DNA of 64,000 nucleotides from an uncultured bacterium (GTDB taxonomy: Bacteria; Patescibacteriota; Minisyncoccia; Phycocordibacterales; DATDWN01): positions 157 to 64,156 of the forward strand of contig CAVSGX010000003.1 of assembly GCA_963727715.1 (NCBI GenBank), given 5' to 3'. Positions within the stretch are counted from its first letter, which is position 1; each line of letters begins with the position of its first letter. The translations under genes were made by a program, and so were the position numbers. The notes beneath the pieces were generated by a model. The model had not been told where the DNA came from, did not search any database, and was given only the letters and a program-made list of their open reading frames with translations. Below are positions 623 through 58,990 of the stretch, piece after piece.

Positions 623-2101
623 ATGCCTACCATTTCAATTAATAATTGGTTTACAAAATTTTTTCTCATTTCCATTTTTCTATACACGCCTGTTGTTTTT
701 GCTGATGGATCGGTCAGCATTCAATCTCTCTCGCCAGGGCAAACCGACAGAGTTGGCAATGAAGTGACATTTAACATTGTCTCATCTGGTTTTAATAGTG
801 CGATTTCTTATGCAATTTCCGACTCACTTTCCGGGAGCAGTATCTCCTCAAGCAACATTAATTCAAACGGAATTTTTGCTTGGATACCGACGTCTGCTGA
901 TGTTGGCACTCATAATCTGACCATCAATTTGACAGATCAATCCGGTGATTCGGCTACTCTAACAGAACAGCTAATTGTTCCCCTTTTGCCGGTCGTCTCC
1001 ATAAACTCTGTTTCTCCAGGTTCATCAGTAAACGTCGGACAAACCGTCTTCTTTAATGCATCAGCCGTCGGTTTTATCAATCCGCAATATTCAGTGGCGG
1101 ATTCGGTTATGACTTCCAGTTTGACTCCTTCGGCTATAAATTCTTCCGGCGGTTTCAGTTGGACGCCGAAAAATCAAGATGCCGGAAGTCACAGTATTAC
1201 CGTTACGGCCAACGATTATTTGGGTGACAGCGCCAGCGCGACAATCGGTGTAAATGTCGGTGTTGTCTCATCCAGCATACAATCTCTCTCACCCAGCGCG
1301 ACGGTTTTTCTATCTCAAAATGTTACGTTTACTGTCGTTACGACTGGATTTACCAATCCAACCTATACGATTTCCGATTCTCTCTATGGAAGCAGTATCA
1401 ACAGTTTAAACATAGATTACAACGGAAATTTTAGTTGGACACCAAAAAGTCAAGATGTTGGTTCGCATAATATCACCGTAATGGTTAGAGATTCTCTGGG
1501 TAATGTTTCCACGGTATCGCAACCGATAATTGTTTCCGGTACTGGTATTTCAATAAGTTCCATGAGCCCCGGACTCTCAATTACACCCGGAACGATTTTT
1601 GCTTTCATCGCTTCAACCACGGGATTTGTTAATCAATCGGTTTATTCTGTATCTGATTCGTTTGTTGGGACGAGTCTTACAACAAAAAATATAACTGCTG
1701 ACGGAGTTTTCAGTTGGACCCCGATTTTAAGCGACATTGGCACGCATACGATATCGGTTTTCACCTTGGATAATTTTGGTCAAAGTTTAAGAAGTAGTAT
1801 TACTGTAAATGTCGCACAAGCGACGACAACCACCACAACTTTAGGGACAAATTCGGTTGGTAATAACACAACCACAGGAGCACTCAAATATCACTTCTCC
1901 CATCCCCTTTCTGTTGGTTCGAGAGGCGCGGATGTTACAGCTTTGCAAAACTTTTTGATCAGCCAAAAATTTTTCTCCGGCCCGATCAGTGGATATTTTG
2001 GCTCATTGACATTCGCCGCGGTTAAAAAATTTCAAAAAGCCCACAATCTTTCACAGGTTGGTACGGTTGGTCCGCTGACTCGGGCTTTACTCAATCAATA
2101 A
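623..2101 (+). CDS. Cell-surface protein: N-terminal hydrophobic anchor/signal, five tandem Ig-like repeats of about 95 aa, C-terminal peptidoglycan-binding-like domain
   Basis: 492-aa ORF. Hydrophobic N-terminus FTKFFLISIFLYTPVVFA. Repeat unit (SIQSLSPG..VTF..TGF.N..Y.ISDS..GSSI....GNFSWTP...DVGSHNITV) recurs 5 times. C-terminus GSRGADVTALQNFLISQKFF..GYFGSLTFAAVKKFQKAH resembles the PG_binding_1 helical domain. Confidence 0.6.
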   Translation: MPTISINNWFTKFFLISIFLYTPVVFADGSVSIQSLSPGQTDRVGNEVTFNIVSSGFNSAISYAISDSLSGSSISSSNINSNGIFAWIPTSADVGTHNLTINLTDQSGDSATLTEQLIVPLLPVVSINSVSPGSSVNVGQTVFFNASAVGFINPQYSVADSVMTSSLTPSAINSSGGFSWTPKNQDAGSHSITVTANDYLGDSASATIGVNVGVVSSSIQSLSPSATVFLSQNVTFTVVTTGFTNPTYTISDSLYGSSINSLNIDYNGNFSWTPKSQDVGSHNITVMVRDSLGNVSTVSQPIIVSGTGISISSMSPGLSITPGTIFAFIASTTGFVNQSVYSVSDSFVGTSLTTKNITADGVFSWTPILSDIGTHTISVFTLDNFGQSLRSSITVNVAQATTTTTTLGTNSVGNNTTTGALKYHFSHPLSVGSRGADVTALQNFLISQKFFSGPISGYFGSLTFAAVKKFQKAHNLSQVGTVGPLTRALLNQ

Positions 2102-2188
2102 AAAGAATATTCAACTTCAACAAAATTAAACATTAAGAAAGAATCTTCGGCCACAAAACCACGGCAGGTTGTCAAAAAGGAATCTTTA

Positions 2189-2701
2189 ATGTATATTGTA
2201 ATAGTTCCCTATTGGTCAATGACACTTCATATGATTTCCAACCCATTTTTTTTCATTTACATATTGGCTGTTATCGTTTTGCTTTTTATAGTTTGGATTA
2301 TTCGTTTGGAAATAAAAATGAGAAAGCTTTTGCGTGGTGGAAATGGAAAATCTTTGGAAGAAATTATCAATCAAGCTCATAATTCCATTTCTAATTTGCA
2401 GGAATTTCAAAAAGATTCCATTGAATATTTTCATAGTGTGGAAAATCGTTTACGATCCAGTGTGCAGGCGGTAGAGACAATTCGTTTCAATCCTTTCAAA
2501 GGCACTGGAGACGGTGGCAACCAAAGTTTTTGCACAGCCTTTGTCAACGAAAAAGGCGACGGGGCTATAATTTCCAGTCTCTATTCGCGCGACAGAGTCA
2601 GTGTTTTCTCCAAACCGCTTGCTGGTTTTGAAAGTTCGTTTGAGCTGACAGACGAAGAAAAAGAAGTTTTACAAACAGCCAAAGCCAAACTTAAAAATTG
2701 A
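2189..2701 (+). CDS. Hypothetical membrane protein (N-terminal TM; conserved RFNPF.G.GG.QSF.. motif; possibly DUF4446-like)
   Basis: 170-aa ORF; one strong TM helix (FFFIYILAVIVLLFIVWII), then a soluble domain; family assignment is from memory only. Confidence 0.35.
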   Translation: MYIVIVPYWSMTLHMISNPFFFIYILAVIVLLFIVWIIRLEIKMRKLLRGGNGKSLEEIINQAHNSISNLQEFQKDSIEYFHSVENRLRSSVQAVETIRFNPFKGTGDGGNQSFCTAFVNEKGDGAIISSLYSRDRVSVFSKPLAGFESSFELTDEEKEVLQTAKAKLKN

Positions 2702-4593: not shown

Positions 4594-4665
4594 GGCCTGG
4601 TCGTCAAGTAGTAAGACATAGATCTGCAAAATCTATACACGCGGGTGCAATTCCCGCCCAGGCCT
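4594..4665 (+). tRNA. Candidate tRNA-Cys (anticodon GCA) with noncanonical T-loop
   Basis: Manual fold: acceptor GGCCTGG/CCAGGCC, anticodon arm TAGAT-CTGCAAA-ATCTA (GCA), T-arm GCGGG-TGCAATT-CCCGC, discriminator U73 (a Cys identity element). G at position 55 and a D-loop without GG are atypical. Starts 1 nt after the rbfA stop. Confidence 0.4.
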
Positions 4666-4698
4666 CAAGAAAAAGCAAAACTTTTTCTCTTGCAATTT

Positions 4699-4783
4699 GC
4701 CCGAGTGGCGGAACTGGTATACGCGCACGACTTAAAATCGTGTCTCGAAAGGGATGTGGGTTCGATTCCCACCTCGGGCACCA
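4699..4783 (+). tRNA. tRNA-Leu (anticodon UAA)
   Basis: Acceptor GCCCGAG/CTCGGGC, anticodon arm CACGA-CTTAAAA-TCGTG, long variable arm, T-arm TGGGT-TCGATTC-CCACC, encoded CCA. Confidence 0.85.
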
Positions 4784-4883
4784 AAATAGAACTCAACGGT
4801 TTTCGATCCCAGACAAAAAGCAATAACATTGCTTTTTTCTGAGTCACAAATTAAAAACTGCCTTAACAGCAGTTTTTAATTTG

Positions 4884-4956
4884 TGCACCCAGCAGGGATC
4901 GAACCTGCGACCTTCTCCTTAAGAGGGAGTTACTCTACCAGCTGAGTTATGGGTGC
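4884..4956 (-). tRNA. tRNA-Lys (anticodon CUU)
   Basis: Reverse complement folds: acceptor GCACCCA/TGGGTGC, D-arm ACTC-AGCTGGTA-GAGT, anticodon loop CTCTTAA, T-arm GCAGG-TTCGATC-CCTGC. Confidence 0.8.
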
Positions 4957-5044
4957 TCGGTAAATTAGATTTCATATTAGCATAAATAATTCAAATCATA
5001 AAATACTTTATATTTTTTATTTATTAGTGTAATGTAAATACATC

Positions 5045-5125
5045 GGGCGAGTGGTGAAATGGCAGACACACCAGCTTTAGGAGCTGGTGCCGCAAGGCAT
5101 GGGAGTTCAAGTCTCCCCTCGCCCA
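5045..5125 (+). tRNA. tRNA-Leu (anticodon UAG)
   Basis: Acceptor GGGCGAG/CTCGCCC, anticodon arm CCAGC-TTTAGGA-GCTGG, long variable arm TGCCGCAAGGCAT, T-arm GGGAG-TTCAAGT-CTCCC. Confidence 0.8.
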
Positions 5126-5290
5126 CAAAAAACAAACTGCATTAGCGATTTTTGATTCCTATCTCAATCCCATATTCCATCCTTATTTAAAGTTATATTT
5201 TTTGTAGTCCAAAACCTTGACTTTTTATTGTTTTTATGATAGCATCTAATCAGGTGTCAGTTCTTTGACACTTGAAAGGAAAAGAGAAAA

Positions 5291-6505
5291 ATGCGAAAGT
5301 TTTGGGTGACCCTATTTGTTTCTGTCATCTTGGCTGTGCTTGCCTACGGGTTGAGCGAGTTAAGCGACGGAGAAGTATCATTCTTGGCGATGTTTTTCTG
5401 CGAAGTTGTGATCTGCGCAGTATGCACGATTAGCTTCTGGAAACTCGCCGAACACGATATCATTTTTGGTTTCTTCTCGAGTAACCAAATTGCTATTGTA
5501 GAATCTGGAGAAAAGCCGGTCAAACTGATCGGTATACCAACAGAAGGAAAGTCCATCCAAGGACTCAAAGTCCTGTCAGGTGAACAGAAACCAAACTGGT
5601 GGAATCCTTTTGAGATATGGTTCAACATGTTCTTCATTGGTCTGCCATGGAGAAGAATAAAGAGATTTATCCTCATCCATGAAAGATTCAGCAAAGAAGA
5701 ATTACCAAGGGGTGCCTCGCCGACAAAGTATATTGTTGCGGATCCAGAAGACGAACATCCGGCGGAACGATTTTTGCTCGGTAATTCTTTGCACGATTTC
5801 ATCGTGCCAGATATTGAGCTTGCCGAGGGATACTCGGCGCACATCAAAGTAACCGGCGAACTGGATCTGGAAGATCCGATTATCTCCGTCTACAGGAGAG
5901 CTGGAAGTTCACCTCACAAAGATGGTCTCTACAAGGTTAACTTCTACGGGCCAATCGGCGATGTGGTCAACACAGCCGTCGACAATGCCTGCAGAGGCAT
6001 GGGCTACTACCCGTCTGATCCAAAACCGGTAGACCCGAACATACCTCAACCAATTCTCTCAGACAAAGAATCACTCAATAAGAATGGTTTTTTGGCTGCA
6101 GACAAGTCCAGCCAAGGCACCCTATGCCAGATTATTTTGAAAGAAATCGCGGCCTCGGTGCGCCAACTCAGCGGGTATAATGTGATAAGAGTCTTTATCC
6201 CTGGGTGGGATCTGACAACAGACGAACAACGAGATCTCGTGCAACAGCGTGAACGTGCCAGAATCACTCGCGATGTCAAGCTTCTGGAAGCTGAAGGTGA
6301 GAATGCTGGGACGGTCAATCTCATGGCAGCCATGAAGAAGGAGTACCCAAATGCCACTGACTCTGAGTTGGCTCAGAGAGTGACTGAATTGGAAATCTCC
6401 AGAAACATTGCCGGGATGCCAAACCTTACGGTCTACGCTCCTGGTGCTAATTTAGCGGTCAGTACGCCACAACAGAGTGGCAACAAGAAAGGATCTGGCA
6501 AATGA
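5291..6505 (+). CDS. SPFH/band-7-like (stomatin/flotillin/HflKC-like) membrane protein
   Basis: 404 aa. Two N-terminal TM helices, then a soluble domain whose C-terminal part (VIRVFIPGWDLTTDEQRDLVQQRERARITRDVKLLEAEGENAG) resembles the SPFH coiled-coil region (..ERE.RA.I..AEGE..A). Stop overlaps the next start (ATGA). Confidence 0.45.
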   Translation: MRKFWVTLFVSVILAVLAYGLSELSDGEVSFLAMFFCEVVICAVCTISFWKLAEHDIIFGFFSSNQIAIVESGEKPVKLIGIPTEGKSIQGLKVLSGEQKPNWWNPFEIWFNMFFIGLPWRRIKRFILIHERFSKEELPRGASPTKYIVADPEDEHPAERFLLGNSLHDFIVPDIELAEGYSAHIKVTGELDLEDPIISVYRRAGSSPHKDGLYKVNFYGPIGDVVNTAVDNACRGMGYYPSDPKPVDPNIPQPILSDKESLNKNGFLAADKSSQGTLCQIILKEIAASVRQLSGYNVIRVFIPGWDLTTDEQRDLVQQRERARITRDVKLLEAEGENAGTVNLMAAMKKEYPNATDSELAQRVTELEISRNIAGMPNLTVYAPGANLAVSTPQQSGNKKGSGK

Positions 6506-7632
6506 GCTTCGTTAATTGGGTTATTCTTATAGCTCTGGCCTCACTCTTTTTTGGCCTCTGCTACCTGTTGAACTGGTTGCGTGGAAAGTTCCTAGTAGTT
6601 GACACCTACTGGAAAAACGGCACAATTTGGGCTTTTCTGGCTGTCATACTTGTCCACATGGGCATCTGGTGGCTGTGGCCCGAATTCTGGCATGAGTGGT
6701 GGTCAAGGTCAGGTTTTTTGTTCTTCCAGATTCTGGTTGGGGTAGGATTCTACCTCAGACTCGGTTTGAAAGACAAGAAATTCCTAAGGCACCTTGGGCT
6801 TATCCTTATCGCACTTGGGGTGGTTGGCATCGGCTGGAACATTTACTCCGCTTTGCGGGTTCATCGTTCGGCCACAGAAGTGATGTCACCTGCGGAATTA
6901 AAAAACCTCCCGAAACAGAATTGGGACGGAGAACAAAAGGTGACCAGGTTCTGGAAGAACCATCTGCCGGAAGAGTCTGCTCTGGCGATATTGCGAATCG
7001 TCAGACGTCAGTCCGGCTTCAACCAGTTTGGCGAAAATGGTAAGCCATACCGCAATCCGGCAAACCCGTCAAAGGTCGGGGTGATGCAGATTGACGACTC
7101 GATTTGGTCCGAAAGGGCTCGCGAGCTCGAATATAATCTGTACGAGATGGATGGGAACCTCCGCTTCGCGCTCTGGCTCTACAAGGAGCAAGGGTTTGCG
7201 CCCTGGCTCGGGAATAGTCAGACCACGCTTGATTCAGCCAAACAGGTTTCGTCGGCTATTGGTGATGCTTTCAGTAGCAAACCGAAGGCCGACGAGCGAC
7301 AGGCCAAAAGAATTCGGGACTTTCTGGACAGAAACAGGACAGATAATCCCGAGGTCTTGACGCGGTTGATTCGGACCATAGAAATGTGGCCGACAATGAT
7401 CGGACCACGTTCTCGGGTTGTCAACATTCCGGCCACCGGCTGGAGTGAAAAGATCGCAATCGGAAAAACTCCGATGCGAATCCGTCCGTCAGAAGACATG
7501 GTCGTGTCAGACGACCATGGCAGAGAATATCCAATCTCTGTCATCAATCCGAACTGGAACTTTCCCCCTACCGAATGGGTGAGATACCGGTCGGTCTCTG
7601 GCAAGCCAGCCATCGTGCTGGTCAGCCCATGA
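6502..7632 (+). CDS. Polytopic membrane protein (4 TM) with C-terminal SLT/lysozyme-like domain; catalytic Glu replaced by Gln
   Basis: 376 aa. Segment ALAILRIVRRQSGFNQFGENG..PSKVGVMQIDDSIW..EYNLYEMDGNLRFALWLY matches SLT family-1 motifs (ES-GFNP, GLMQI, Y..DP.NI) but has RRQSGFN where RQESGFN is expected. Confidence 0.45.
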   Translation: MSFVNWVILIALASLFFGLCYLLNWLRGKFLVVDTYWKNGTIWAFLAVILVHMGIWWLWPEFWHEWWSRSGFLFFQILVGVGFYLRLGLKDKKFLRHLGLILIALGVVGIGWNIYSALRVHRSATEVMSPAELKNLPKQNWDGEQKVTRFWKNHLPEESALAILRIVRRQSGFNQFGENGKPYRNPANPSKVGVMQIDDSIWSERARELEYNLYEMDGNLRFALWLYKEQGFAPWLGNSQTTLDSAKQVSSAIGDAFSSKPKADERQAKRIRDFLDRNRTDNPEVLTRLIRTIEMWPTMIGPRSRVVNIPATGWSEKIAIGKTPMRIRPSEDMVVSDDHGREYPISVINPNWNFPPTEWVRYRSVSGKPAIVLVSP

Positions 7633-15922: not shown

Positions 15923-16956
15923 CCCCTAGCCACCTTTGAAGTAGGACAGTTAGAATTAATGCATTAGTCGAAAATTAATTTTAATTGTCATATGAAAAAC
16001 AAATATCATCATTTGTCTTTTGAAGAGAGGTTTTGTATTGAAAAGATGTATTGCGCCGGTTCGGCCATTCGCAAAATTGCCGAATTTCTCGGTCGGAGTG
16101 TCAACACTGTGAGCAGAGAAATACAAAAACACAGTGTTAATGGGGTGTATGAAGCGGAAAAAGCCAAGCAGAAAGTTTCAATGAAAAGATGGCGAGCCAA
16201 ACAGCAGTGTCTGAAAGTGGCGCTTGACCCGTTTCTCTGTCGATTCGTGGTGGAACGATTAACCAAGCCGTATCATTGGTCGCCGAAGCAGATTAGCGGG
16301 TATCTTGAATGTGAAATGGGTATCATCTGCTCGGCCAAAGCCATATACAAATTTGCCGAGTCGAGAGGTCTAAACCACCTGCTTTTTTGGGGTTGGAACA
16401 ATCACAAGGGTGGGAGAAAACGAAATCATTGGAAGCACATTCAGGATGGCAGGAAGTATATTGATGTCAGACCGGAGAGAAAAGGTCTAGGACACATTGA
16501 GCTCGATTTCATCGTTTCCAAAGACAGTTCGTGGGTACTTTTGGTTGCTGTGGATTGGCAAGCCAAAAGAACATGGGTCAGGAAACTGCCCAACAGAAAA
16601 CGCGACACTATTCGTGCCGCGCTTTCCCGTCTGTTCCATGGTGTTGAATTGAAGAGCATCACCACAGACAACGATATTGCATTCACCTGTTGGAAAGAGT
16701 TGGAAACTCTCCTGCAAGTGCCAATCTATTTTACACATCCATACCATTCTTGGGAAAAAGGTCTGGTGGAAAACACCAACAGATGGATCAGATGTTTTGT
16801 GCCTAAACGAAGAGATATTGAGTCAGTCACTGAGGAAGAATTGCAAGAAATACATTCCTTCCTAAACAACCGACCGAGAGAAGTGATTGGCTTCCGCGCG
16901 CCAATGAGTTATTATTCAAACATTAGTTCTGTCCTACTTGAGGGGTAATTGGAGGC
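15923..16956 (+). mobile_element. IS30-family insertion sequence, copy 1
   Basis: Boundaries taken from identity with the second copy at 36785-37830 (shared ends CCCCTAGCCACCTTTGAAGTAGGAC ... GTCCTACTTGAGGGGTAATTGGAGGC); single transposase ORF. Confidence 0.8.
15992..16948 (+). CDS. IS30-family DDE transposase
   Basis: 318 aa; N-terminal HTH; C-terminal DDE region (..DNDIAFTCW..E..) typical of IS30 transposases; about 99% identical to the copy at 36756-37751. Confidence 0.85.
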   Translation: MKNKYHHLSFEERFCIEKMYCAGSAIRKIAEFLGRSVNTVSREIQKHSVNGVYEAEKAKQKVSMKRWRAKQQCLKVALDPFLCRFVVERLTKPYHWSPKQISGYLECEMGIICSAKAIYKFAESRGLNHLLFWGWNNHKGGRKRNHWKHIQDGRKYIDVRPERKGLGHIELDFIVSKDSSWVLLVAVDWQAKRTWVRKLPNRKRDTIRAALSRLFHGVELKSITTDNDIAFTCWKELETLLQVPIYFTHPYHSWEKGLVENTNRWIRCFVPKRRDIESVTEEELQEIHSFLNNRPREVIGFRAPMSYYSNISSVLLEG

Positions 16957-17151
16957 ATCATATTCCGCAATAAGCCTATCACAGAATAAAAAATCTGTCA
17001 AGTGATTTTGGAAAAAAAAGCAAAATTCTTTTTCTGAATTCAAAAATAACCTTATTTTAAGCCATTTTTGAGAGGTCAAAAAATATTGAGTAATTTTTGT
17101 TTTTTGTTCTTTTCCAACTTTTTACCACGAACACTTTAAATTTCTGGTCAC

Positions 17152-21888: not shown

Positions 21889-22329
21889 TTGATTAAATTG
21901 ACAAACCTTACGGGTGGGCATAGTATTTTCGAGGGGTCAAACATGCTAATTGAAAATTCGGAAGCGACTTTTGAAGTGAACATTCACAAAGAAGAAGACC
22001 GCAGAAATGAAATTGTCGTGCATATTGATGGTCATTATGCTCATCCCGATGTTATTCTTGAAATAGAAACGCTAGTAAGTTTTCAGTGGGAGGGGAAAAC
22101 ATTTGTTAAAGACGCTGGGCAGTCTTTGATGGATCTGCTTAGGGAATTGATCAAAGTAGATTCCAGATCGCGTGGAGATGTCGATGAGCACGAAATCCAT
22201 TTTGAGATTCAGATTTCCGAAGGAAGAGTAGTTTTCAAAAATAATAAAATTTTTCTTCGTGAAGTTTCCTTTGTTCTTAAAAAAGTCATCTCTGTCAAAC
22301 CAATTTTGACAGAAACAAAACCGTCTTGA
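21889..22329 (+). CDS. Hypothetical protein
   Basis: 146-aa ORF with local codon usage; no recognisable motif. Confidence 0.3.
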   Translation: MIKLTNLTGGHSIFEGSNMLIENSEATFEVNIHKEEDRRNEIVVHIDGHYAHPDVILEIETLVSFQWEGKTFVKDAGQSLMDLLRELIKVDSRSRGDVDEHEIHFEIQISEGRVVFKNNKIFLREVSFVLKKVISVKPILTETKPS

Positions 22330-23510: not shown

Positions 23511-25947
23511 TCAAGAGATGACAAAATTCAGGAGACGGTTTGGAATATGAATTATTTTTAGAACATTTTTGTCGGCAAGCCACTTATCCACACCGGGTAC
23601 TTTCCGAGCCATGGTCACAAGCTCGTCTTTGGACATATCGCGCGCCACCGTGATCTCTGCTCGGACTTTGCCGTTGACCTGAATGACCACACTGACTTCC
23701 CCGCTTTGCATTTTGGCTTTGTCAGCCTCCGGCCATTTCTCGGAAACCAAAAATGTTTTATGACCGAGATTGTGCCAAAGCTCATCGCTTATGTGCGGAG
23801 CGAACGGCGACAAAATTTTCAGAAAAATTTCAAAATATTTTTGTGGCACAGCCGACGCTTTTTCAAATTGGCCGATTAAAATCATCATAGCCGAAATAGC
23901 TGTATTGAAATGCATAATCTCAATATCACCCGAAACTTTTTTGACAGTTTGGTTTAAAAGTATTTCAAGATTTTTATTTTGACCGGCTTTTTCGGATATT
24001 TTCTCTTGCAATTTCCAAACTCGTTCCAAAAATCTTCGCGAACCGGAAATGCTATTTGTGTCCCAGTTGATGGCCTGATCAAATGGGCCCATAAACATTT
24101 CATAAACACGCAAAGTGTCGGCGCCATAAGTTTTAACAATGTCGTCCGGGTTGATAACATTGCCACGCGATTTGGACATCTTCTCGCCGTTCTCGGCCAA
24201 AATGAATCCGTGCGATGTGCGTTTTTTGTACGGCTCGCTTGTCGGCACCAGTCCGATATCAAACAAAAATTTGTTCCAAAATCGCGAGTACAAAAGATGC
24301 AGCGTAGTGTGTTCCATTCCGCCGTTGTACCAATCCACAGGCATCCAGTATTTCAGTTTTTTCATGTCGGCGAATTTTTTGAAATTTTTTGGATCAGCAG
24401 TAGCGCAGAAAATACCAACTGGATCCGGCCCAGTTTGGCATCGTATCCGTTTCGCGCTTGGCCTTGCCTCCACACTTTGGGCATTTGGTGTTGACCCATT
24501 TTGAAATGTTGGCCAGTGGCGACTCGCCGGTTTCTGTCGGCTGATATTTCTCCACTTTCGGCAATTTCAGTGGCAAATCTTTTTCCGGCATAGCAACCAA
24601 TCCACAATTTTCGCAATCCACAACCGGAATCGGCTCGCCCCAGTAGCGTTGTCGTGAAAAAACCCAATCGCGCAGTTTAAATGTTTCTGTCATTTTACCA
24701 CCTGCAAACTCGGTGATTTTTTTCTTGGCTTCTTCACTTTTCATTCCGTCAAATTTGCCGGAGTTGATCATTTTTCCTTCTCCAACATAAGCTTCTTTCA
24801 TTTCTTCCACATTATTTTCAGATGACACCACTTCTTTTATAGGCAAACCATATTTTTTTGCAAACAAAAAATCACGCTCATCATGGGCCGGCACAGCCAT
24901 AACCGCGCCCGTGCCATAGTCGGCCAAAACATAATCGGCAATCCAAACCGGCATTTCTTCGTTGTTTGCGGGATTAACCACCAAAACTCCATTCAATCTC
25001 ACACCCGGTTTTTTCCTTTCGTCGTTTGTCCGTTCAATCTGCGCCGTCTTTTTTGTCTGTTCAAGTATTTTTCGACTTCCGGCTAATTTTTGATTTCCTC
25101 TTTCCAACTTCTGTACCAAGTGATTTTCTGGTGCAACAACCAAATATGTCACACCAAACAAGGTATCCGGCTCGTGTGGTGAAAACTTTTACTTACATTT
25201 TGAAATTTGGATTTTGGATTTATTTGTCATTTGAAATTTGGATTTTGAAATTTATTTCCGCCCCTTCCGAACGCCCAATCCAGTTTCTCTGCTGTAATTT
25301 TTATTTTCTCCAAATAATCCACCGTATCCAAATCTTTGTCCAGACGGTCGGCGTATTTGGTAATGCGCAGCATCCACTGTTCCTTTTCGCGTTTCTCCAC
25401 CGGTGTGCCGCAGCGTTCACATTTGCCGTTCACCACTTCCTCGTTGGCCAGGCCGATTTTGTCTTTCGGACACCAGTTGATGGCGATTTTGCTTTTGTAA
25501 GCTAAATCGTGTTTAAAAAATTGCAGAAAAAGCCACTGCGTCCATTTATAATATTTCGGGTCAGTCGTGTTGATTTCGCGCGACCAATCAAAAGAAATTC
25601 CAAGATAGTTTTATTTGCCGGCGAAAATTTTCCGATATTTTTTTTGGTTACTTCGGCTGGTTGCACGCCGGTTTTGATGGCGTAATTTTCTGTCGGCAAA
25701 CCAAAAGCGTCCCAACCCATCGGATACAGCACATCGTAGCCTTCCATCCTGCGTTTGCGCGCGACGATATCAATCCGATGTATGGTCGTGGATGTCCGAC
25801 ATGCAAGCCATCGCCTGACGGGTATGGAAACTCCACCAGCGCGTAATATTTGGGTTTCTTTGAAAAATCTTCAGCCTGAAAAATTTTCTTTTTCTCCCAT
25901 TCTTTCTGCCATTTTTTTTCTATCGTTGAGTGATTGTACACTTTCAT
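23511..25947 (-). pseudogene. leuS: Leucyl-tRNA synthetase interrupted by at least 4 frameshifts (assembly errors or a pseudogene)
   Basis: Five consecutive ORF fragments (25648-26184 HIGH region HVGHP, 25502-25747 [11 protein letters not shown], 25227-25436, 24394-25161 editing domain, 23511-24473 KMSKS and anticodon-binding domain) are collinear with LeuS; breaks fall at homopolymers such as T8 near 25637. Confidence 0.8.
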
Positions 25948-26014
25948 GATTTTTAAATAATACATAAAAAACCGCTTCTTGGCAAAGCGGTTTTTGCTGG
26001 TAATTTGTTTAATA

Positions 26015-26944
26015 TCATTTTGCGACTGGCACTGGAAAAACTTGCGGATAAGCAACCGGTTGTTTTGTGATTGTCTGACTAAGACAATATCTGCCGGCCG
26101 AATGACGTAGATAAGTATAACCAATATTTTCACCCGGATAAGCACTTTGAGGATTGGCTTTGTTAAACACGGCGCAAACTTCAAACGTCGTATCGCTGGT
26201 TTTTATGTACTCATATTGATTATGAGTCTGCGGATCTGTTGGAATGACGTAATAATTATTTAATGTGGCCAAATCAACAAGCGACTCCGGTAAAACATTT
26301 TTTGAATAGAAATAATTTTGAACCTGTCCGCTGATGCTTTGCAAGTCACTGACTCTTTGCTGATCATATTTGTAAAGTTGTTGTGTCCACGGCGAGCCGA
26401 GTACGGCAAATCCCCAGACGATTGAAGCGACGATAATAAGCAAAGCCAAAACAACCCACGATTTTTTTTCGTGTGAAGTTAGTGTTTTGCGAATATCGGA
26501 AATGTAGTAAAGAAAAACCAACCCGGTCACGACAAGCACGGATAAAACTTTTAGAAGAAACCCGGTGGTCATTTCCTGTCCGTCAAGAAAATAATAAAGC
26601 ACGGTCACCAAATCTCCGGCCAGCGTCAGTCCGGCGATGAAAAGGGTGATGTATGTCAGCCACTTGCGCACGCCAAGATTTTTTTTCTCTGGTTCCATGA
26701 GATAACTTTTTTCCAAAAACCATGAGAGCAAAATGAAAATCGGAAAGAAAATTATCAATGTAGCTACCGGAAAGCTGATGGAACTACTGCCTACATAATA
26801 ATAGTCTGTGATTTTTGGGTAAGCTTGGTTAATTACGGTGAAAAGTAAATTGAGCAAAGAGACAACCGTCGTGTAAAGTGCGACAATGGCGCCGAGGTTT
26901 AGAAAAAAATCCTTGGCACTCGTTTTTGGTTTTTGTGGGTCCAT
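26015..26944 (-). CDS. Hypothetical polytopic membrane protein
   Basis: 309 aa; about 6 predicted TM helices in the N-terminal two-thirds, then a soluble C-terminus. Confidence 0.4.
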
Positions 26945-27019
26945 AAAAATTAGTTAGTTGATATAAGCGTATTATACCAAAATAAAAGTCCCTGTACATT
27001 AGGGACAATTTTTCTCCTT

Positions 27020-27232
27020 CTAATTTTCTTTTAACAGTTTTATGGTTTTTCCTGAAAGAATAGCCACAGTTGTCCAGGATATAAAACCAATTCCATAGAT
27101 AATTGTTCCAATCGACTGTTTGTTATAATATACAGAGCCGATCGTAGCCACTAAACAGAAAGCAAGCATAAAAAGAGCAAGATAAAAAATTATTCTCAAA
27201 AATATTTTCATCGCATTGTCCTCCGATGCCAT
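27020..27232 (-). CDS. Small hypothetical membrane protein
   Basis: 70 aa; two hydrophobic helices. Confidence 0.3.
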   Translation of the reverse strand: MASEDNAMKIFLRIIFYLALFMLAFCLVATIGSVYYNKQSIGTIIYGIGFISWTTVAILSGKTIKLLKEN

Positions 27233-27254
27233 ATTAACTCAATATAGAAAAAAG

Positions 27255-28259
27255 TCAAATCCTAAATTCAATCACATCGCCATCCTTTACCACATATTCT
27301 TTACCCTCGGTTTTGACCAAACCTTTCTCGCGAGCCTTCGCGTACGAGCCGGAAGCGAGAAGATCGGACCAGAAAACAATTTCGGCGCGGATGAATTTGT
27401 CGCGGAAGTCGGTGTGAATAGCTTGTCCGGCCACAGGTGCAGTGCTACCGCGGACAACCGTCCAAGCTCGCGATTCATCTTTGCCGGTAGTAAAATATGT
27501 AATGAGTTTGAGTGTCTCGTAGGCTTTTTGAATCAGAGAATCCAAACCTTTTTCAAAAATCGGATCAATCTCAACATACGGCCCGGGGATTTTGTTGGCA
27601 ACTTCGGTCAAATTTTTAGACGACGCTTCGGATGTGTTCAAAACATACAAAATCAGCTTCATACTCAAGAGATGCATCGATTTGACGAAAACGATTTCTT
27701 TTTCATCAAGGGCGGTGGTGTTGGCCATTTTGCTGTCCTCAAGTATTTTTTGAATTTTGGCTAAAACCCCGTCTTCTTCAATCGCCTCTTTTTTGTGTGC
27801 TTTGATTTCTTTGGAAAGATTTTCGCGTCTTTTGGTCACGGTCTGCAAGTCGGCCAGAATCAATTCCAGATTTATAACTTCAATATCCGACAGTGGATCA
27901 ACTTTGCCACTGACATGAATAATATCGTCATCCTCAAAAATTCTGACAACTTCGGCGATAGCGTCCACTTCGCGGATATTTGACAGAAATTTGTTGCCGA
28001 GTCCCTCGCCAACGCTCGCACCTTTGACCAAACCGGCGATGTCCACGAATTCCACCACAGCCGGAATGGTTTTAGCCGACTTGCTAAACTCTGACAATTT
28101 CCACAACCGCTCGTCCGGCACAGGCACGATGCCAACCGATGGATCAATGGTGCAAAAAGGATAATTCTCGGCCGGCACAGACTTTTTGGTCAGCGCGTTA
28201 AAGAGCGTGGACTTTCCGACATTCGGTAAGCCAACTATTCCGATTGAAAGAGATTTCAT
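27255..28259 (-). CDS. ychF: Ribosome-binding ATPase YchF (Obg-family GTPase)
   Basis: P-loop IGIVGLPNVGKSTLFNALT; YchF-type G motifs; C-terminal TGS domain. Confidence 0.85.
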   Translation of the reverse strand: MKSLSIGIVGLPNVGKSTLFNALTKKSVPAENYPFCTIDPSVGIVPVPDERLWKLSEFSKSAKTIPAVVEFVDIAGLVKGASVGEGLGNKFLSNIREVDAIAEVVRIFEDDDIIHVSGKVDPLSDIEVINLELILADLQTVTKRRENLSKEIKAHKKEAIEEDGVLAKIQKILEDSKMANTTALDEKEIVFVKSMHLLSMKLILYVLNTSEASSKNLTEVANKIPGPYVEIDPIFEKGLDSLIQKAYETLKLITYFTTGKDESRAWTVVRGSTAPVAGQAIHTDFRDKFIRAEIVFWSDLLASGSYAKAREKGLVKTEGKEYVVKDGDVIEFRI

Positions 28260-28299
28260 AACTTTAAAATAACATGTACAAATATTTTTGAAAAGGATG

Positions 28300-28357
28300 T
28301 TGACAAGATTTTGAATTTATGTAGCATATCTGACAGAGATCATTTTTAGATCTTTGT
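28300..28357 (+). promoter_or_regulatory. Sigma-70-like promoter (TTGACA, 16 nt spacer, TAGCAT) followed by an imperfect dyad GACAGAGATCATTTTTAGATCTTTGTC, upstream of the GC-rich gene
   Basis: Consensus -35 and plausible -10 in AT-rich native sequence directly 5' of the GC-rich block; the dyad is a candidate operator. Confidence 0.4.
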
Positions 28358-28456
28358 CAAAAAGGGGGGTATCAAGCGAACACAAAAGCCCTCCCAAACC
28401 GTCAACCAGGAAAGAGGCGCGGCGGGAACGTGGCGCTTCGAAACGTGAAGGACCAC

Positions 28457-28885
28457 ATGAAGTTCAAACTTCTCGCTATCGTTTTCGCGTTCGCCTTCGC
28501 GGTGAGCGCACTCGGTGGAACACGTTCGTATTGGGACACTCTGTCCCAAGCCGAGAAAGCTGACTACGCTACGGCGGCTCGGGAGCACTGCATGGCGAGC
28601 AAGTTGCTCGGCGATGACCCGCTGCTCAAGACGGCGGACTCGTTCGGCGGACAATGCTCTTGCCCGAACCAGGGGAAGCTGTGTAGCGTTGACAACGACA
28701 ACTGCGCCGCCGACCCAATCGGGACGACATGTCAGATTTGGCAGACGTGTTTCTGCAAGCTCGACACGATCTATGCGTATCCGGATTGGTCGTTCTGGGG
28801 CCACTGCGCTTTATCTAACAAGAACAATGGCTCGCTCACACCACATCGCAGCCGTGTACTCGCGTCGATACCGGATGGGAAGTGA
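28457..28885 (+). CDS. Secreted cysteine-rich small protein in a GC-rich (about 58%) foreign island
   Basis: Signal peptide MKFKLLAIVFAFAFAVSALG; 9 Cys (CSCPNQGKLCSVDNDNC, TCQIWQTCFC, HCAL); strong G/C third-position bias unlike every neighbouring gene; RBS AAGGA 7 nt upstream. Confidence 0.55.
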   Translation: MKFKLLAIVFAFAFAVSALGGTRSYWDTLSQAEKADYATAAREHCMASKLLGDDPLLKTADSFGGQCSCPNQGKLCSVDNDNCAADPIGTTCQIWQTCFCKLDTIYAYPDWSFWGHCALSNKNNGSLTPHRSRVLASIPDGK

Positions 28886-29130
28886 TTTTGGAATCCGGGC
28901 GCGCGAGCAAAGCAGGCCAATGCCGGATGGATCTATGTTGGCGACACGACCATCATGGGACATCGCACGGCCATCATTGAACACTCTACGGGAACGATTT
29001 CCTGCCAGCGTTCAGGGTCATTCACCGGATTGCTCAAGGGTACGCCCTTGGCAGACGTGCTGAACAACCTCTCCAGTAGCCGCCACTAACAGCGACAAGA
29101 AGTTCTTTCAAAATGCGAATTTTATTCGCA

Positions 29131-29160
29131 GCCCGGACGATACCATCGTCCGGGTTTTTT
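29131..29160 (+). terminator. Rho-independent terminator closing the GC-rich island
   Basis: CCCGGACGA-TACCA-TCGTCCGGG hairpin followed by TTTTTT. Confidence 0.65.
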
Positions 29161-29264
29161 CATACAAATTTTTATTATTATTCAATAAATCTTACTAGAT
29201 ATCCAACTTTCCCTTTTCTAGATCCATAATCCACACTTTTTCTTAAATGGATAAAAAACAAACG

Positions 29265-30158
29265 CTATTGCAATTGACACCGCGCTTTCAGCTCGGCTAT
29301 GTCGTCCTTGCTCAAGTATTCGTTCGGACCGATATTCAGAGCGTACATTATTGAAGCTGGGTTGTTGTTGTGTGCCAGACCTAAAGCGTGACCAAGTTCG
29401 TGAGCCAGGACGCGGACCAGTTTTTGATTATCGCTGAATTCGTAAACGTTTATTTGGTCTGTGTTTGGGTCGTATTCCCCCTCCTGAAATTCCTTGCCCG
29501 CAGTTTGATTTATTTTATTGACGTTTGAATTGGCGTCGTTGACCAGCAAATTATATTTCTGAATAAAAGAATTGATTTGATCAGCCAGGCTATTTATTTG
29601 AACCACTTTATCGTTCAAAGTATTCTGTTCGGTCAAAAGGTTGTTTCTTTCAACATTCAATTTATCATATTCACTTTTTGGAGCACCCCCTTTATTGTTC
29701 CAATATTGCACTTCGGAGTTGTAAGAACTCTGATCTTGATTGAAAGTATTCAATTGGCTGGCATACTCCGTTTGAAGCGCCTTATATTGTTGCTCCAGAG
29801 AAAGATATTGCTGTTTTACCGCGTCAGCCGAACCGGCAATTTTGTTGACATCGGCTTGCAGAACCGCATTTTGCTGTGTGGTTTGTTGTCTCTCATCATA
29901 AACCAAGTTTATAACCAAACTGCCATTCGGATTATATTCAAATAATTTTTTACCAGCCGATTTTTGCCATATTGTTGTCGCCTGACTTATGTCGTCCAAA
30001 AAAGTTTTTTGGGTTATGCCAAAATGCGCGTCAAAAGAACCGAGCTTGTATTTAATCGGAGAGTCGCAAGGTTTTTTGTGCGAGAAATAAAAATATCCGT
30101 AAGCGCCGGTGCAGATAAGAATGACAACCAGCCAGAATGTGATATTTTTTCTAGACAT
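29265..30158 (-). CDS. Membrane-anchored metzincin (matrixin-like) zinc metalloprotease with a coiled-coil spacer
   Basis: N-terminal TM; Q/N-rich coiled-coil region; HELGHALGLAH (HExxHxxGxxH) motif near the C-terminus and a Met-turn candidate (SIMYA). Confidence 0.7.
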   Translation of the reverse strand: MSRKNITFWLVVILICTGAYGYFYFSHKKPCDSPIKYKLGSFDAHFGITQKTFLDDISQATTIWQKSAGKKLFEYNPNGSLVINLVYDERQQTTQQNAVLQADVNKIAGSADAVKQQYLSLEQQYKALQTEYASQLNTFNQDQSSYNSEVQYWNNKGGAPKSEYDKLNVERNNLLTEQNTLNDKVVQINSLADQINSFIQKYNLLVNDANSNVNKINQTAGKEFQEGEYDPNTDQINVYEFSDNQKLVRVLAHELGHALGLAHNNNPASIMYALNIGPNEYLSKDDIAELKARCQLQ

Positions 30159-30221
30159 CAGTTTTACAAAATTTTAAAAAACTCACACTGTTTGAATGTC
30201 CAATATGAAATAAATGCCTTT

Positions 30222-30635
30222 TTATTTCAAACCATGAGATTTAAAACATTCCTTGTATTTTTGATCTGTATTCATAATGTGGTCAATCAGCCAGTTTTCA
30301 ACAAAATCCACAAGCTCAAAAGCAAACTCCATAGTGTATTTCGGATATTTTTCTATCAATGCTTCCAGTTCCTCACTGAATTGTTTATGTCTTTCCTCAT
30401 GCTTTTTTGTTCCCTCATAGTTAAACATTTCAAAATATTTTTCTTCGGTCGCAAAATGAATATTTTTGTATTTTAGCAGTTCATCAACCACTCCTTTCAA
30501 ATATTTTTCCGGATCGTTTGTATTTATAACGTCGAATAGTTCATTTATAGCGGAGAATATCAATTTATGTTGATCGTCTATCTGAGCAACCCCGACGCTA
30601 TATTTATCATCCCACTCTAATTTTTTTATGTTCAT
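30222..30635 (-). CDS. Bacteriohemerythrin
   Basis: 137 aa; W.D.....V..ID.QH at the N-terminus plus H..., HF..EE, H...H, WL..HI..D iron-ligand pattern of the hemerythrin family. Confidence 0.8.
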   Translation of the reverse strand: MNIKKLEWDDKYSVGVAQIDDQHKLIFSAINELFDVINTNDPEKYLKGVVDELLKYKNIHFATEEKYFEMFNYEGTKKHEERHKQFSEELEALIEKYPKYTMEFAFELVDFVENWLIDHIMNTDQKYKECFKSHGLK

Positions 30636-30742
30636 ATTTAATATTTATTATTCAACTTATTTGCCATAACATTATACAACACCAAACCTTTATCGCCTCC
30701 GGTTTTTGTGGATAATAATTTGGAGTCCAGTCAAATTCTGAA

Positions 30743-30967
30743 TCACATCAACCTTTTCAAATCAGCTTCGTATTTTTTAGTCACAAATAGAGCGGCATCG
30801 GTTTGGCTTTTACCCTTTTTCATTTCAGCTTGTGTTTCCTCGGCGATTTTTTGAAATAAAGCCGGATCTTTTTCAAGCATGGCAAAAATTTTTTCCTGTT
30901 CGGCGACTGGCACACCGGCCATTTGCCTGGCTAGCATTTTTTTCATTAAAAAATTTTGAATAGACAT
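30743..30967 (-). CDS. Small hypothetical protein
   Basis: 74 aa, charged and helical, no TM. Confidence 0.3.
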   Translation of the reverse strand: MSIQNFLMKKMLARQMAGVPVAEQEKIFAMLEKDPALFQKIAEETQAEMKKGKSQTDAALFVTKKYEADLKRLM

Positions 30968-31128
30968 AAAATCATGATATCATAAATCCGTACACCAAAT
31001 TTGGCATCGTTGCAATTATTTTTTGGAAAATTATGAAAGCGGTTTAAATTATATCACAGAAATAATATTTGAAATAAGAATAACATTGCAACAAAAAATA
31101 ATGCCAAAATTGGTGTCCGGATAAAAAT

Positions 31129-36245: not shown

Positions 36246-36400
36246 TAAACCCTGTCGCTTGTATTCCTCGAAAGGCAATCTGTCTGGCAAAGCTTTGTCA
36301 GCGAACTTCTCGTCGCTCAAGAAAATTATGTTCGGAATACCTCACTAGTTTTCTAAGCTCCTGCGAAAGGCCTTTCTCGAAATACTAGCGACAGGGTTTG
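36246..36400. repeat. MITE-like palindromic repeat, family B, copy 1
   Basis: TIR AAACCCTGTCGCT.GTATT / AATACTAGCGACAGGGTTTG; core CAATCTGTCTGGC..AGCGAACTTCTCGTCGCTCAAGAAAATTATGTTCGGAATACCTCACTAGTTTTCTAAGCTCCTGCGAAAGGC. Confidence 0.6.
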
Positions 36401-36451
36401 TCTGTCAAAATTCCTTTCTCGACAATCAAGAAAATAATTCTACCAGAAGTT

Positions 36452-46318: not shown

Positions 46319-46468
46319 TGCTACCCCTAATTTTAGAGTCTAAACATTTTTCAAATTTTGTCAAGCGGGCGGGGAATGAGAAATTTGGTACAATGGGTTC
46401 ACAATGACTTCTAAATTTACCCACCCCAGTAGCAGAGCATAGCTCGCTACGGAGCAAGTCTTCACACC

Positions 46469-49857: not shown

Positions 49858-49945
49858 TTTTTTGTTAGTTATATTTCTAGGTTTGTCAAGAAGTGCCGAT
49901 TTAGCAGTTGAAATAAAAATCTGGCTGTGTTAGAATGGCGAAACT

Positions 49946-50191
49946 ATGATAAATGCCGAAGTTGTCAAAAATAACAACGAAAACAATTTGAACTTAATCC
50001 GCCGGTTTACCAAAAAGGTGCAGGGCTCTGGCGTTTTACCGCGCGTGAGAAGTATCCGCTATGCTTCGCGCAAACAGTCCGAGTATGTCAAAAAGAAAAA
50101 AACTCTGAAGGTGCTGAAACGCCGAGCCGAAGTTGATGAACTTATCAAAATGGGCAAAATGGTGGAGTTTACGCGTGGTGGCAAGAAATAA
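49946..50191 (+). CDS. rpsU: 30S ribosomal protein S21
   Basis: NLIRRFTKKVQGSGVLPRVRSIRYASRKQSEYVKKKK matches the S21 pattern (ALRRFKR...GVL.EVR.R..YEKP...RKR). Confidence 0.7.
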   Translation: MINAEVVKNNNENNLNLIRRFTKKVQGSGVLPRVRSIRYASRKQSEYVKKKKTLKVLKRRAEVDELIKMGKMVEFTRGGKK

Positions 50192-53526: not shown

Positions 53527-53577
53527 AAAAACAAAAGTCACCCGCAAGGGTGATTTTGCAAAGCAAATGTTTTGGGG

Positions 53578-53650
53578 AGCCGGCACGAGGGATCGAACCC
53601 CGGACATTTCGCTTACAAAGCGAATGCTCTGCCAACTGAGCTATGCCGGC
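53578..53650 (-). tRNA. tRNA-Thr (anticodon UGU)
   Basis: Reverse complement folds: acceptor GCCGGCA/TGCCGGC, D-arm GCTC-AGTTGGCA-GAGC, anticodon arm TTCGC-TTTGTAA-GCGAA, T-arm CGGGG-TTCGATC-CCTCG. Confidence 0.8.
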
Positions 53651-57727: not shown

Positions 57728-58990
57728 TTATAAATTCGCCAATGGGTCGATCATTGTTGTCTGGATTGAGGAGGCGCGAGCCATGACTTGGTTGCCGTAA
57801 AAAGCATTGGCCGCGCGTCTCCAATTGGCGCCGGCGTAATATTTCAAAGCGGCGTTTCTTTCGGCTGTATATCCTCCGCCGGAAGCACCGAGCTCGGAAA
57901 GGTAGATGGCCGAGGCCATAAACGCGTCTTCCGGATTCCACGGGCTGACTGTACTGCGACCGACCGCCGCTTCGATTTTTGGTTCGTAAAGTTCCCATGT
58001 AGTCGGAATAAACTGGGCAGGTCCCATCGCTCCGCCCCAACCGGTACCGCCAATCGGGCAAGACAATGGCATTGTGTCAGGGTTTAGTCCCAAAGCCGAA
58101 GTGATACGCAGGTAAGCGCTCTGGTCGTCGCGACTGGAGCCACTGTTCGGACCGGGCATAATATTTTTCCAACTTTTGCTCGGCGGATCACCCGACCGGT
58201 TGCAAGTGCCGACATTTTTGCCGAGATTGCTCTCCTGGGTCAAGATGGCCAAAAGAAAAGCGGGGTCAACACCTGTTTTGGTTTGAGCTTCCTGCGCAAA
58301 TTTCAAAGCGTCGCCGAAAGGAATGGCTGCCGTGTCGCGCAAAGAGAAAAGAGCCGCACGAATCTTGGCCGCCGCCGCTTCTCTTTCATTCAAAACTTGC
58401 TGGTAAGTTTTTTCCTGTTTTTTGTTTATAGTTATCAGATACTCCTTTTGTTTTTCTTCGCTTTGAACCTGCTGTTGTTGAAGTTGCATGGCCATTTTAG
58501 TGTCCGTTTCCTTATCTTTCTGCGTGCTTAAATCAGCTTTGGCTTGTTCAACCAATGTTTCGTTAGCCAAAATTTTAGCGAACAAATCGGCCAGAGATTT
58601 TTTAATCATATAAAAATAATCAATATCGGAAAAAAAGTCAGATAAGTTTTGACCACTTAAAAAAACTTCCGGCAAAGAGGTATCGTCCAACTGCTGTTCC
58701 TGGCGCAAAATCTGGGCCAGCGATTCGTGCCCGCTTTCTATTTGGTTTTCCAGGTCACCAATAACCTGGTTTTTTTGGTCAATGCTGGACTGCAGTTGCT
58801 GGATAGCGATGTTTTTTTGTTTGATAAAATCTTGAGCTTGTTTTATTTTGGCATTCAAAATGGAGGCGTCGCGCTGGAGAGAAGCTGTGCCGGCTTTGGT
58901 TGTGTCCAAAATGCTCTGCCACTTGGCTATGTCGGCTTCTGTTTGAACTAGCTCGGCCTGCCACTCGGCTTCCTGCTCGGCCGGAGTCAA
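57728..58990 (-). CDS. Lytic murein transglycosylase (MltB/SLT_2-like) with long N-terminal coiled coil
   Basis: C-terminal domain AILTQESNLG..GGAMGPAQFIPTTW..ASAIYLSELG matches the MltB family (GPMQFMP.TW); N-terminal 200 aa is Q/E/K-rich coiled coil. Confidence 0.75.
   Translation of the reverse strand: MTPAEQEAEWQAELVQTEADIAKWQSILDTTKAGTASLQRDASILNAKIKQAQDFIKQKNIAIQQLQSSIDQKNQVIGDLENQIESGHESLAQILRQEQQLDDTSLPEVFLSGQNLSDFFSDIDYFYMIKKSLADLFAKILANETLVEQAKADLSTQKDKETDTKMAMQLQQQQVQSEEKQKEYLITINKKQEKTYQQVLNEREAAAAKIRAALFSLRDTAAIPFGDALKFAQEAQTKTGVDPAFLLAILTQESNLGKNVGTCNRSGDPPSKSWKNIMPGPNSGSSRDDQSAYLRITSALGLNPDTMPLSCPIGGTGWGGAMGPAQFIPTTWELYEPKIEAAVGRSTVSPWNPEDAFMASAIYLSELGASGGGYTAERNAALKYYAGANWRRAANAFYGNQVMARASSIQTTMIDPLANL

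Follow-up and report, generated by a model that had tools for sequence, protein, structure and literature searches.

A GC-rich island located between ychF and a metalloprotease gene was analysed in a 64,000-nucleotide stretch (the window) of contig CAVSGX010000003.1, from an uncultured bacterium of the Patescibacteriota. The island is protein-coding on the forward strand and is exactly one promoter-to-terminator unit; its gene is an orphan whose predicted product is an exported, cysteine-rich protein, and its reading frame meets an in-frame TGA after 142 codons. With moderate confidence, we favour the explanation that the island is a single-gene unit, an orphan open reading frame (ORF) which entered a variable slot by horizontal transfer and was later truncated by a nonsense change. 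The features on which this argument draws are given below, in window positions.

27255-28259, reverse strand: ychF, flanking gene, divergent from the island gene.
28285-28363, forward strand: imperfect inverted repeat with 25-nt arms (28285-28309 and 28339-28363) that are 72% complementary and bracket the promoter and transcript start.
28300-28327, forward strand: sigma-70-type promoter, TTGACA (28300-28305), 16 nt and TAGCAT (28322-28327), 10/12 matches.
28335-28456, forward strand: predicted 5' untranslated region (UTR) of approximately 122 nt, the transcription start being placed from the position of the -10 element.
28457-28885, forward strand: ORF part 1, from ATG 28457 to the TGA, 142 codons with 9 Cys; GC of 0.51, 0.50 and 0.71 at the first, second and third codon positions.
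28457-28510, forward strand: predicted Sec-type signal peptide, MKFK / LLAIVFAFAFAVSA, read from the translation; cleavage is likely to follow VSA (residue 18).
28655-28807, forward strand: Cys-rich core, residues 67-117, C-x-C-x6-C-x6-C-x8-C-x5-C-x-C ... C.
28883-28885, forward strand: in-frame TGA at codon 143, followed by T, also present in an independent assembly.
28886-29092, forward strand: same-frame continuation, 68 sense codons plus TAA (29090-29092), with one more Cys at residue 183.
29115-29160, forward strand: small hairpin (29115-29129), then an intrinsic terminator hairpin of 12 pairs (29130-29156) and a T run.
29265-30158, reverse strand: Peptidase_M10/matrixin-type metalloprotease gene, flanking gene, convergent with the island gene.

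The best two-change-point fit placed the GC-rich block at 28364-29154, with 56.8% GC inside and approximately 30% in the adjoining AT-rich intergenic flanks. The 700-bp segment beginning at 28391 was the GC maximum of the 64 kb, at 57.6% (mean 43.2%, standard deviation 3.7), and the GC-rich island described at this place in an earlier note on the same DNA was thereby confirmed as the richest stretch of the window, at about 57% GC. The window as a whole measured 43% GC and not the approximately 40% given in that note. Native genes had been said to carry A/T in third positions; the contrast with the island held, but a simple A/T bias did not, as native third-position GC content (GC3) ranged from 0.33 to 0.61.

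The translation from ATG 28457 begins MKFKLLAIVFAFAFAVSALGG. Its third-position GC excess was reached by 0 of 20000 permutations, and the antisense and shifted ORFs of the island were Arg-rich and of the wrong periodicity. The ORF specifies 142 amino acids (aa) and not 143 as previously noted; in the NCBI/ENA annotation a 151-aa protein starts at GTG 28430 and ends at the TGA at 28885. At odds with that annotation, the gene caller of the Logan assembly called zero genes in the island (window 28260-29264, equivalent to L087:1758-2762). Inspection of the translation revealed a positive n-region, a hydrophobic h-region and a small-x-small motif (VSA-L), and Sec export with cleavage after VSA is predicted from this signal peptide. 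The nine Cys reported earlier together with the signal peptide were recovered at residues 45, 67, 69, 76, 83, 92, 98, 100 and 117 of the 142-aa product; because eight of these fall inside 51 residues, the protein would be expected to fold extracellularly through disulfide bonds.

The in-frame TGA had been overlooked in the earlier note, which took the gene to be a tidy 143-aa unit, and the frame was found to continue beyond it. In the continuation, GC by codon position was 0.49/0.54/0.67, a third-position excess with p = 0.03; an open frame of 68 codons past the TGA was seen in 7% of shuffles (p = 0.07), and a codon model trained on the part upstream of the TGA favoured the same frame downstream. 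A 21-nt near-duplicate at 28945/28966 is in frame and reads as a peptide repeat, and inclusion of the continuation brings the number of Cys to an even 10. The GC-rich block reaches 200 nt past the TGA because the same frame runs on to the TAA. Together these data give moderate support to the whole island being one frame of approximately 211 sense codons broken by a single stop, of which 28886-29092 is probably the original C-terminal part of the protein. TGA ends 15 of the 45 long ORFs of the host, whose conserved genes are intact under the standard code (code 11); since TGA is thus a host stop, either translation yields a shortened product of 142 aa or the gene is in decay. A coding signal past a stop that the host recognizes, as expected of a nonsense-truncated gene, was accordingly found with moderate support, and no ortholog, intact with a sense codon at 28883-28885 or otherwise, was present in any collection searched.

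The promoter, previously described as native in look, does belong to a type that is over-represented in this genome: TTGACA-N15-18-TAGNNT occurred 6 times in the window against 0.32 expected. This suggests that a TAGNNT -10 element, with its unusual G at position 3, is a characteristic promoter form of this organism. Motif search located the other promoter-like sites as follows.

16973-17001, reverse strand: TAGNNT promoter-like site (TAGGCT).
21898-21926, forward strand: TAGNNT promoter-like site.
36382-36408, reverse strand: TAGNNT promoter-like site.
46337-46364, reverse strand: TAGNNT promoter-like site.
49941-49968, reverse strand: TAGNNT promoter-like site.

The sites at 21898 and 46337 had a Shine-Dalgarno (SD)-like GGGG motif and an ATG within 25 nt. 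The TAGGCT site pointed into 16850-16972 on the reverse strand, a stretch that includes a GC-rich segment (ggcgcgcggaagccaatcac...) and has no obvious ORF on that strand and no Rfam match; a small RNA or a long leader may be encoded there.

The dyad claimed at the island promoter was likewise present, with the arms listed above, and its position is compatible with a possible operator through which the gene might be controlled. The predicted leader contains a stem-loop at 28335-28355, a GGGGGG...CCCTCCC hairpin at the GC boundary and an SD-like GAAGGA at 28447-28452, 4 nt upstream of the ATG. The GC switch at 28364 therefore lies inside the 5' UTR, approximately 30 nt past the predicted start of the transcript. 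At the other end, the intrinsic terminator proved as strong as reported, consisting of a 12-pair hairpin and T run, and could also serve the convergent metalloprotease gene.

No homolog of the island protein was found among about 15 billion proteins. Searches of 5.8 billion clusters (word-indexed) and of 1.84 billion representatives (exhaustive HMMER) returned the protein itself only, and no match was obtained in Pfam, PHROGs, NCBIfam or PDB, in phage and plasmid records (tblastn), or in metagenome and viral contigs. A likeness to a repeat unit of Bacteroidota type IX secretion system (T9SS) surface proteins (P0002, P0003, P0005) was considered and rejected as homology. Residues 150-207 or so, encoded past the TGA, aligned with this unit at 30-39% over 40-55 aa, the alignment taking in the Cys and the motifs SFT and GTPxxDVL; the E-values were inflated by the presence of 6-8 near-identical repeats, and a single repeat scored 24 bits, which is not significant in 1.8 billion. 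AlphaFold, run on the single sequence without an alignment, gave a mean predicted local distance difference test (pLDDT) score of 35, unusable for a fold search.

The product had been proposed to be a toxin, effector or bacteriocin-like factor, for which neither homology nor gene context offered support; the databases of families and structures named above held no match of this kind, and the neighbours are ychF, the matrixin protease, a hemerythrin gene and yceG. The island product resembles the small secreted cysteine-rich proteins, familiar chiefly as fungal, oomycete and animal effectors or toxins, in its signal peptide, its short mature form, its numerous Cys in CxC...CxC spacing and its want of relatives. 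Those proteins constitute a descriptive class and not a homologous family, and the island product comes without evidence of effector or toxin activity; it differs from them in being bacterial, in belonging to no Pfam, NCBIfam or PDB family, and in its odd Cys count when truncated. Given this protein class and the cell-envelope theme of the slot genes in relatives (see below), our guess is that it is a cell-surface or host-contact protein.

In order to place the island relative to native genes, codon usage was compared with the pooled native usage, and the size-matched distance amounted to z = 5. Lys was encoded by AAG in 82% of cases (native, 20%), Thr by ACG in 62% (native, 16%) and Leu by CTC or CTG in 72% (native, 33%), and the Arg codons AGA and AGG were absent from the island gene. 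The four most GC3-rich native genes exhibited no such shift towards G-ending codons (AAG 27%, ACG 20%). These observations fit foreign coding DNA standing behind a host-type promoter. Of the earlier proposal of a recent acquisition from a high-GC donor, the foreign-like composition and codons were upheld, but donor and recency were not; no donor was found, and GC content alone gives no date.

The genes around the island form a conserved backbone in the order yceG, small ORF, variable slot, ychF, DUF5671 gene and leucyl-tRNA synthetase gene, which is common to relatives; in the window, the DUF5671 gene and then the leucyl-tRNA synthetase gene lie further out past ychF, and the hemerythrin gene and yceG are also in the neighbourhood. 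The YchF relatives were all from Patescibacteria/Paceibacteria-type metagenome-assembled genomes (MAGs), and the genome scan for close relatives uncovered nothing above 75% YchF identity. A metagenome scan with the neighbouring protease yielded only relatives of 34-44%, without synteny. Relatives with the same backbone were without the island gene; the nearest stood at only 75% YchF identity, the content of the slot varied between them, and the sole other contig bearing the island was identical.

GC-rich genes of the following two families were encountered in relatives.

L001:4376-5400 and L083:5875-7000 (also in L084-L086): slot gene whose product (288 or 325 aa) carries a signal peptide and is collagen-like in part.
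L015:4398-5924 (reverse strand), L088:5001-6479 and L089:1289-2767: gene for a PG_binding_1 protein of 490-508 aa with a signal peptide.

The nearest relative, L001, and the four metagenome contigs L083-L086, from at least 4 samples, shared the backbone but carried the first of these, a different GC-rich gene, in the yceG-ychF slot. With a GC content of 0.58-0.62 in genomes of 0.34-0.37, it resembles the island gene in its slot, its TTGACA/TAG-type promoter, its signal peptide, its hairpin terminator and a similar codon shift; it differs in having no sequence similarity to the island gene, in its opposite orientation and intact frame, and in its occurrence in at least 4 samples. Comparison of L001 with L083 showed 86% identity over the N-terminal 447 nt of this gene (149 aa, 87%), as against 72-76% for the flanking core genes, and unrelated C-terminal halves. 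From its sequence, the gene looks like a mosaic cassette that may have moved more recently than its hosts diverged. The PG_binding_1 gene of L015 (508 aa) lies directly upstream of ychF and has only four full-length relatives; in three Patescibacteria genomes, each with a different gene context, genes of this type exceeded the GC content of the host by 0.10-0.15, at 38-41% identity. In L052, a GC-enriched YkuD-type L,D-transpeptidase gene with a signal peptide is also directly upstream of ychF. The GC-rich genes of the L001, L015 and L052 types all shifted to the same high-GC codons as the island gene, and a search for the donor of the L001 and L015 genes found only a few lineage-restricted relatives.

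GC-rich blocks within 1.5 kb upstream of ychF were present in L001, L009, L015, L017/L018 and L052, in mutually non-homologous lineages. The enrichment, which is post hoc and weak, had a p of about 0.003 with all five lineages; when confined to the clear coding cases (L001-type, L015 and L052), it corresponded to some 3 of 8 blocks falling within 11.5% of the sequence, with p about 0.05. The region upstream of ychF may be an insertion-prone slot. Exported-protein genes of odd composition recur reproducibly in this group, which agrees with the published report that horizontal gene transfer and genomic islands are common among Patescibacteria (PMC12455944). The island agrees with the orphan genes and genomic islets described there in its abrupt shift of GC and codon usage, its location in a variable slot amid the backbone, its lack of homologs and its extracytoplasmic product. 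It differs in being a single gene of approximately 0.8 kb without integrase, tRNA, repeats or donor, and in having a host-type promoter and an interrupting stop codon.

Three smaller observations concern the same loci. A motif, TCTGWCAGAG, was common to the island and L001 promoters (2 copies against 0.11 expected), and was dismissed as coincidence: the second copy in the window and the copies at other loci lie inside coding sequence, and the sister promoter of L001 is without the motif. A small ORF directly downstream of ychF in L001 (7055-7339, forward strand; 94 aa) has a GC content of 0.55 in a genome of 0.37 and no Pfam match. In L052, an ORF of 133 aa (1852-2253, forward strand) has a GC content of 0.60 against 0.43, a lipoprotein-like N-terminus (LLFLQGC) and no Pfam match.

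The sequence of events that we envisage is as follows. DNA from an unsampled source would most likely have been transferred horizontally into the variable slot by ychF, either downstream of the host-type promoter or together with it. The ORF would originally have had approximately 211 sense codons, and a later nonsense change would have created the TGA at codon 143. The host-type promoter would drive an mRNA with a leader of approximately 122 nt, and the strong hairpin terminator would close the unit. A host using the standard code would then make only the 142-aa precursor with 9 Cys, which would be exported via Sec and cleaved after VSA. The mature form, of approximately 124 aa and with an odd Cys count, would acquire a disulfide-rich fold once outside the cell. 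The gene of today would be a shortened survivor or an early-stage pseudogene.

Several points weigh against this course of events. The transfer is deduced from composition alone, with neither donor nor homolog found. Signatures of mobility were sought at the island, and there were no mobility genes or integrase, no tRNA nearby and no significant flanking repeats; a direct repeat, TACAAATATTT/TACAAATTTTT (10/11, at 28277/29163), was considered as a target-site duplication and discarded, being at chance level in AT-rich DNA (approximately 0.3 expected). Statistical support for the frame past the TGA is only moderate, with p about 0.03 and 0.07. Furthermore, the GC-richness of exported-protein genes in the relatives persists across deep divergence and may be a maintained property and not the mark of a recent import; because it persists in the L015-type gene at 38-41% identity, high GC alone does not date the arrival of the island.

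This last point bears on an unlikely alternative, in which the island gene is native, a lineage-specific and fast-evolving gene for a secreted protein, and no recent import from a high-GC donor. Its high GC would be kept either by codon or mRNA selection, the unit being highly expressed, or by GC-biased gene conversion, the slot being prone to recombination. Such a gene would account for the total absence of homologs, as expected of a fast-evolving orphan, and for the near-consensus promoter and strong terminator, which suit a strongly expressed unit; the L015-type gene, with its GC excess in three genomes and contexts, and the L001/L083 slot gene, which is rich in GC in both of two species that share only 72-76% identity in the flanks, would be its counterparts. 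It is contradicted by a codon dialect unlike that of the native GC3-rich genes (AAG 82% against 27%, ACG 62% against 20%), by abrupt GC changes, one inside the 5' UTR and the other immediately ahead of the terminator, and by a premature stop ill-suited to strong selection. The same abruptness, and the occurrence of the gene in one MAG contig only in the protein database, could also be produced by an assembly chimera in which DNA of a high-GC organism was misjoined into the contig, a concern raised with the original description. This is extremely improbable, since a contig of 5148 bp in the independent Logan assembly of run ERR11594402, which corresponds to window 25874-31021, was identical across the island, both junctions and the TGA, its single mismatch (at 30600) lying far from the island. 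This contig came to light in a look-up of contigs whose encoded YchF or protease is exactly that of the window; the reads behind it may be those that went into the MAG. A chimera would, in addition, require two misjoins 790 bp apart that both return to the same syntenic backbone, around a block that is exactly one promoter-to-terminator unit; with this backbone on both sides, the chimera is largely excluded. A structured non-coding RNA gene, of the kind that stands out by its GC content in AT-rich genomes, is scarcely credible either. The whole unit did fold at z of about -5, on both strands, but this value came mostly from the terminator and leader hairpins and proved ordinary after removal of these hairpins and with native genes as controls; the ORF alone gave z = -2.3 to -3.2, inside the range of sixteen native coding segments (+2.3 to -3.8). 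Rfam, including GOLLD, ROOL, OLE and HEARO, gave no island match at gathering thresholds and, at E up to 10, just chance-level, far sub-threshold matches to the terminator and leader hairpins, and the strong three-base periodicity and canonical signal peptide are those of a protein-coding gene.

The remaining alternatives accept a protein-coding gene and concern its end. The gene may truly end at the TGA at 28885, giving 142 aa; the next 200 GC-rich bases would then be a 3' UTR, or left over from the donor DNA, and open in the same frame by chance. Termination at UGA is generally efficient when U comes next, the NCBI/ENA annotation stops at this codon, and a chance open frame at 7% of shuffles and a GC3 excess of p = 0.03 leave some room for coincidence. 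We nevertheless regard a true end at this position as unlikely, as frame, GC3 bias and codon model alike speak for continuity, the near-duplicate at 28945/28966 reads as a peptide repeat, the number of Cys is even only with the extension, and residues 150-207 weakly resemble a repeated extracellular domain, a resemblance that is suggestive and not significant alone. Persistence of frame and codon bias beyond a single UGA would also be expected if the codon were decoded, whether in a donor in which UGA specifies Gly or Trp (code 25 or 4, as in Gracilibacteria/Absconditabacteria or recoded phage), as selenocysteine, or by readthrough in the host. Decoding is very improbable on several grounds: TGA is a regular host stop and the conserved genes are intact under code 11; the sister islands are without an in-frame TGA; the known lineages with codes 25 and 4 are generally of low GC; and no hairpin resembling a selenocysteine insertion sequence (SECIS) was detected just downstream of the UGA, which itself sits in a loop in a local fold of z = 0.2. 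A horizontally acquired frame, later interrupted by a nonsense change, accordingly remains the explanation that we prefer.

Taken alone, the island is of little weight, as one more orphan, probably imported and partly decayed gene of an uncultured, tiny, groundwater-type bacterium. As an orphan probably acquired by horizontal transfer, it is of an already known sort, the in-frame TGA and the continuation beyond it being the new point. It also illustrates why a compositional island should be examined one frame at a time, the GC block here matching one interrupted gene exactly. A broader proposition, which we put forward as distinctly doubtful, is that unrelated genes for exported or envelope proteins in Paceibacteria-type Patescibacteria are single-gene, partly mosaic mobile cassettes with a shared high-GC dialect and their own strong promoter and terminator, which often land in the slot by ychF and may have their source in one mobile or host-derived pool that serves interaction at the surface or with hosts. 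If such a pattern generalises, it would point to a gene pool for the renewal of surface and secreted proteins in host-dependent ultra-small bacteria, and a handle on their interaction with hosts.

Elsewhere in the window, two adjacent genes at 5291-7632 (forward strand) had the highest native GC content (0.475 and 0.515; GC3 0.51 and 0.61), with unusually negative folding z values of -3.8 and -3.7. The second most GC-rich block, 57751-58250 (up to 0.565), is situated in the C-terminal part of a 420-aa gene (57728-58990, reverse strand) that resembles a cell-wall hydrolase with a coiled-coil N-terminus, and is probably not an island but a conserved domain. Five tRNA genes were identified.

4594-5126: tRNA cluster, Cys-GCA, Leu-TAA, Lys-CTT and Leu-TAG.
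53576-53650: fifth tRNA, Thr-TGT.

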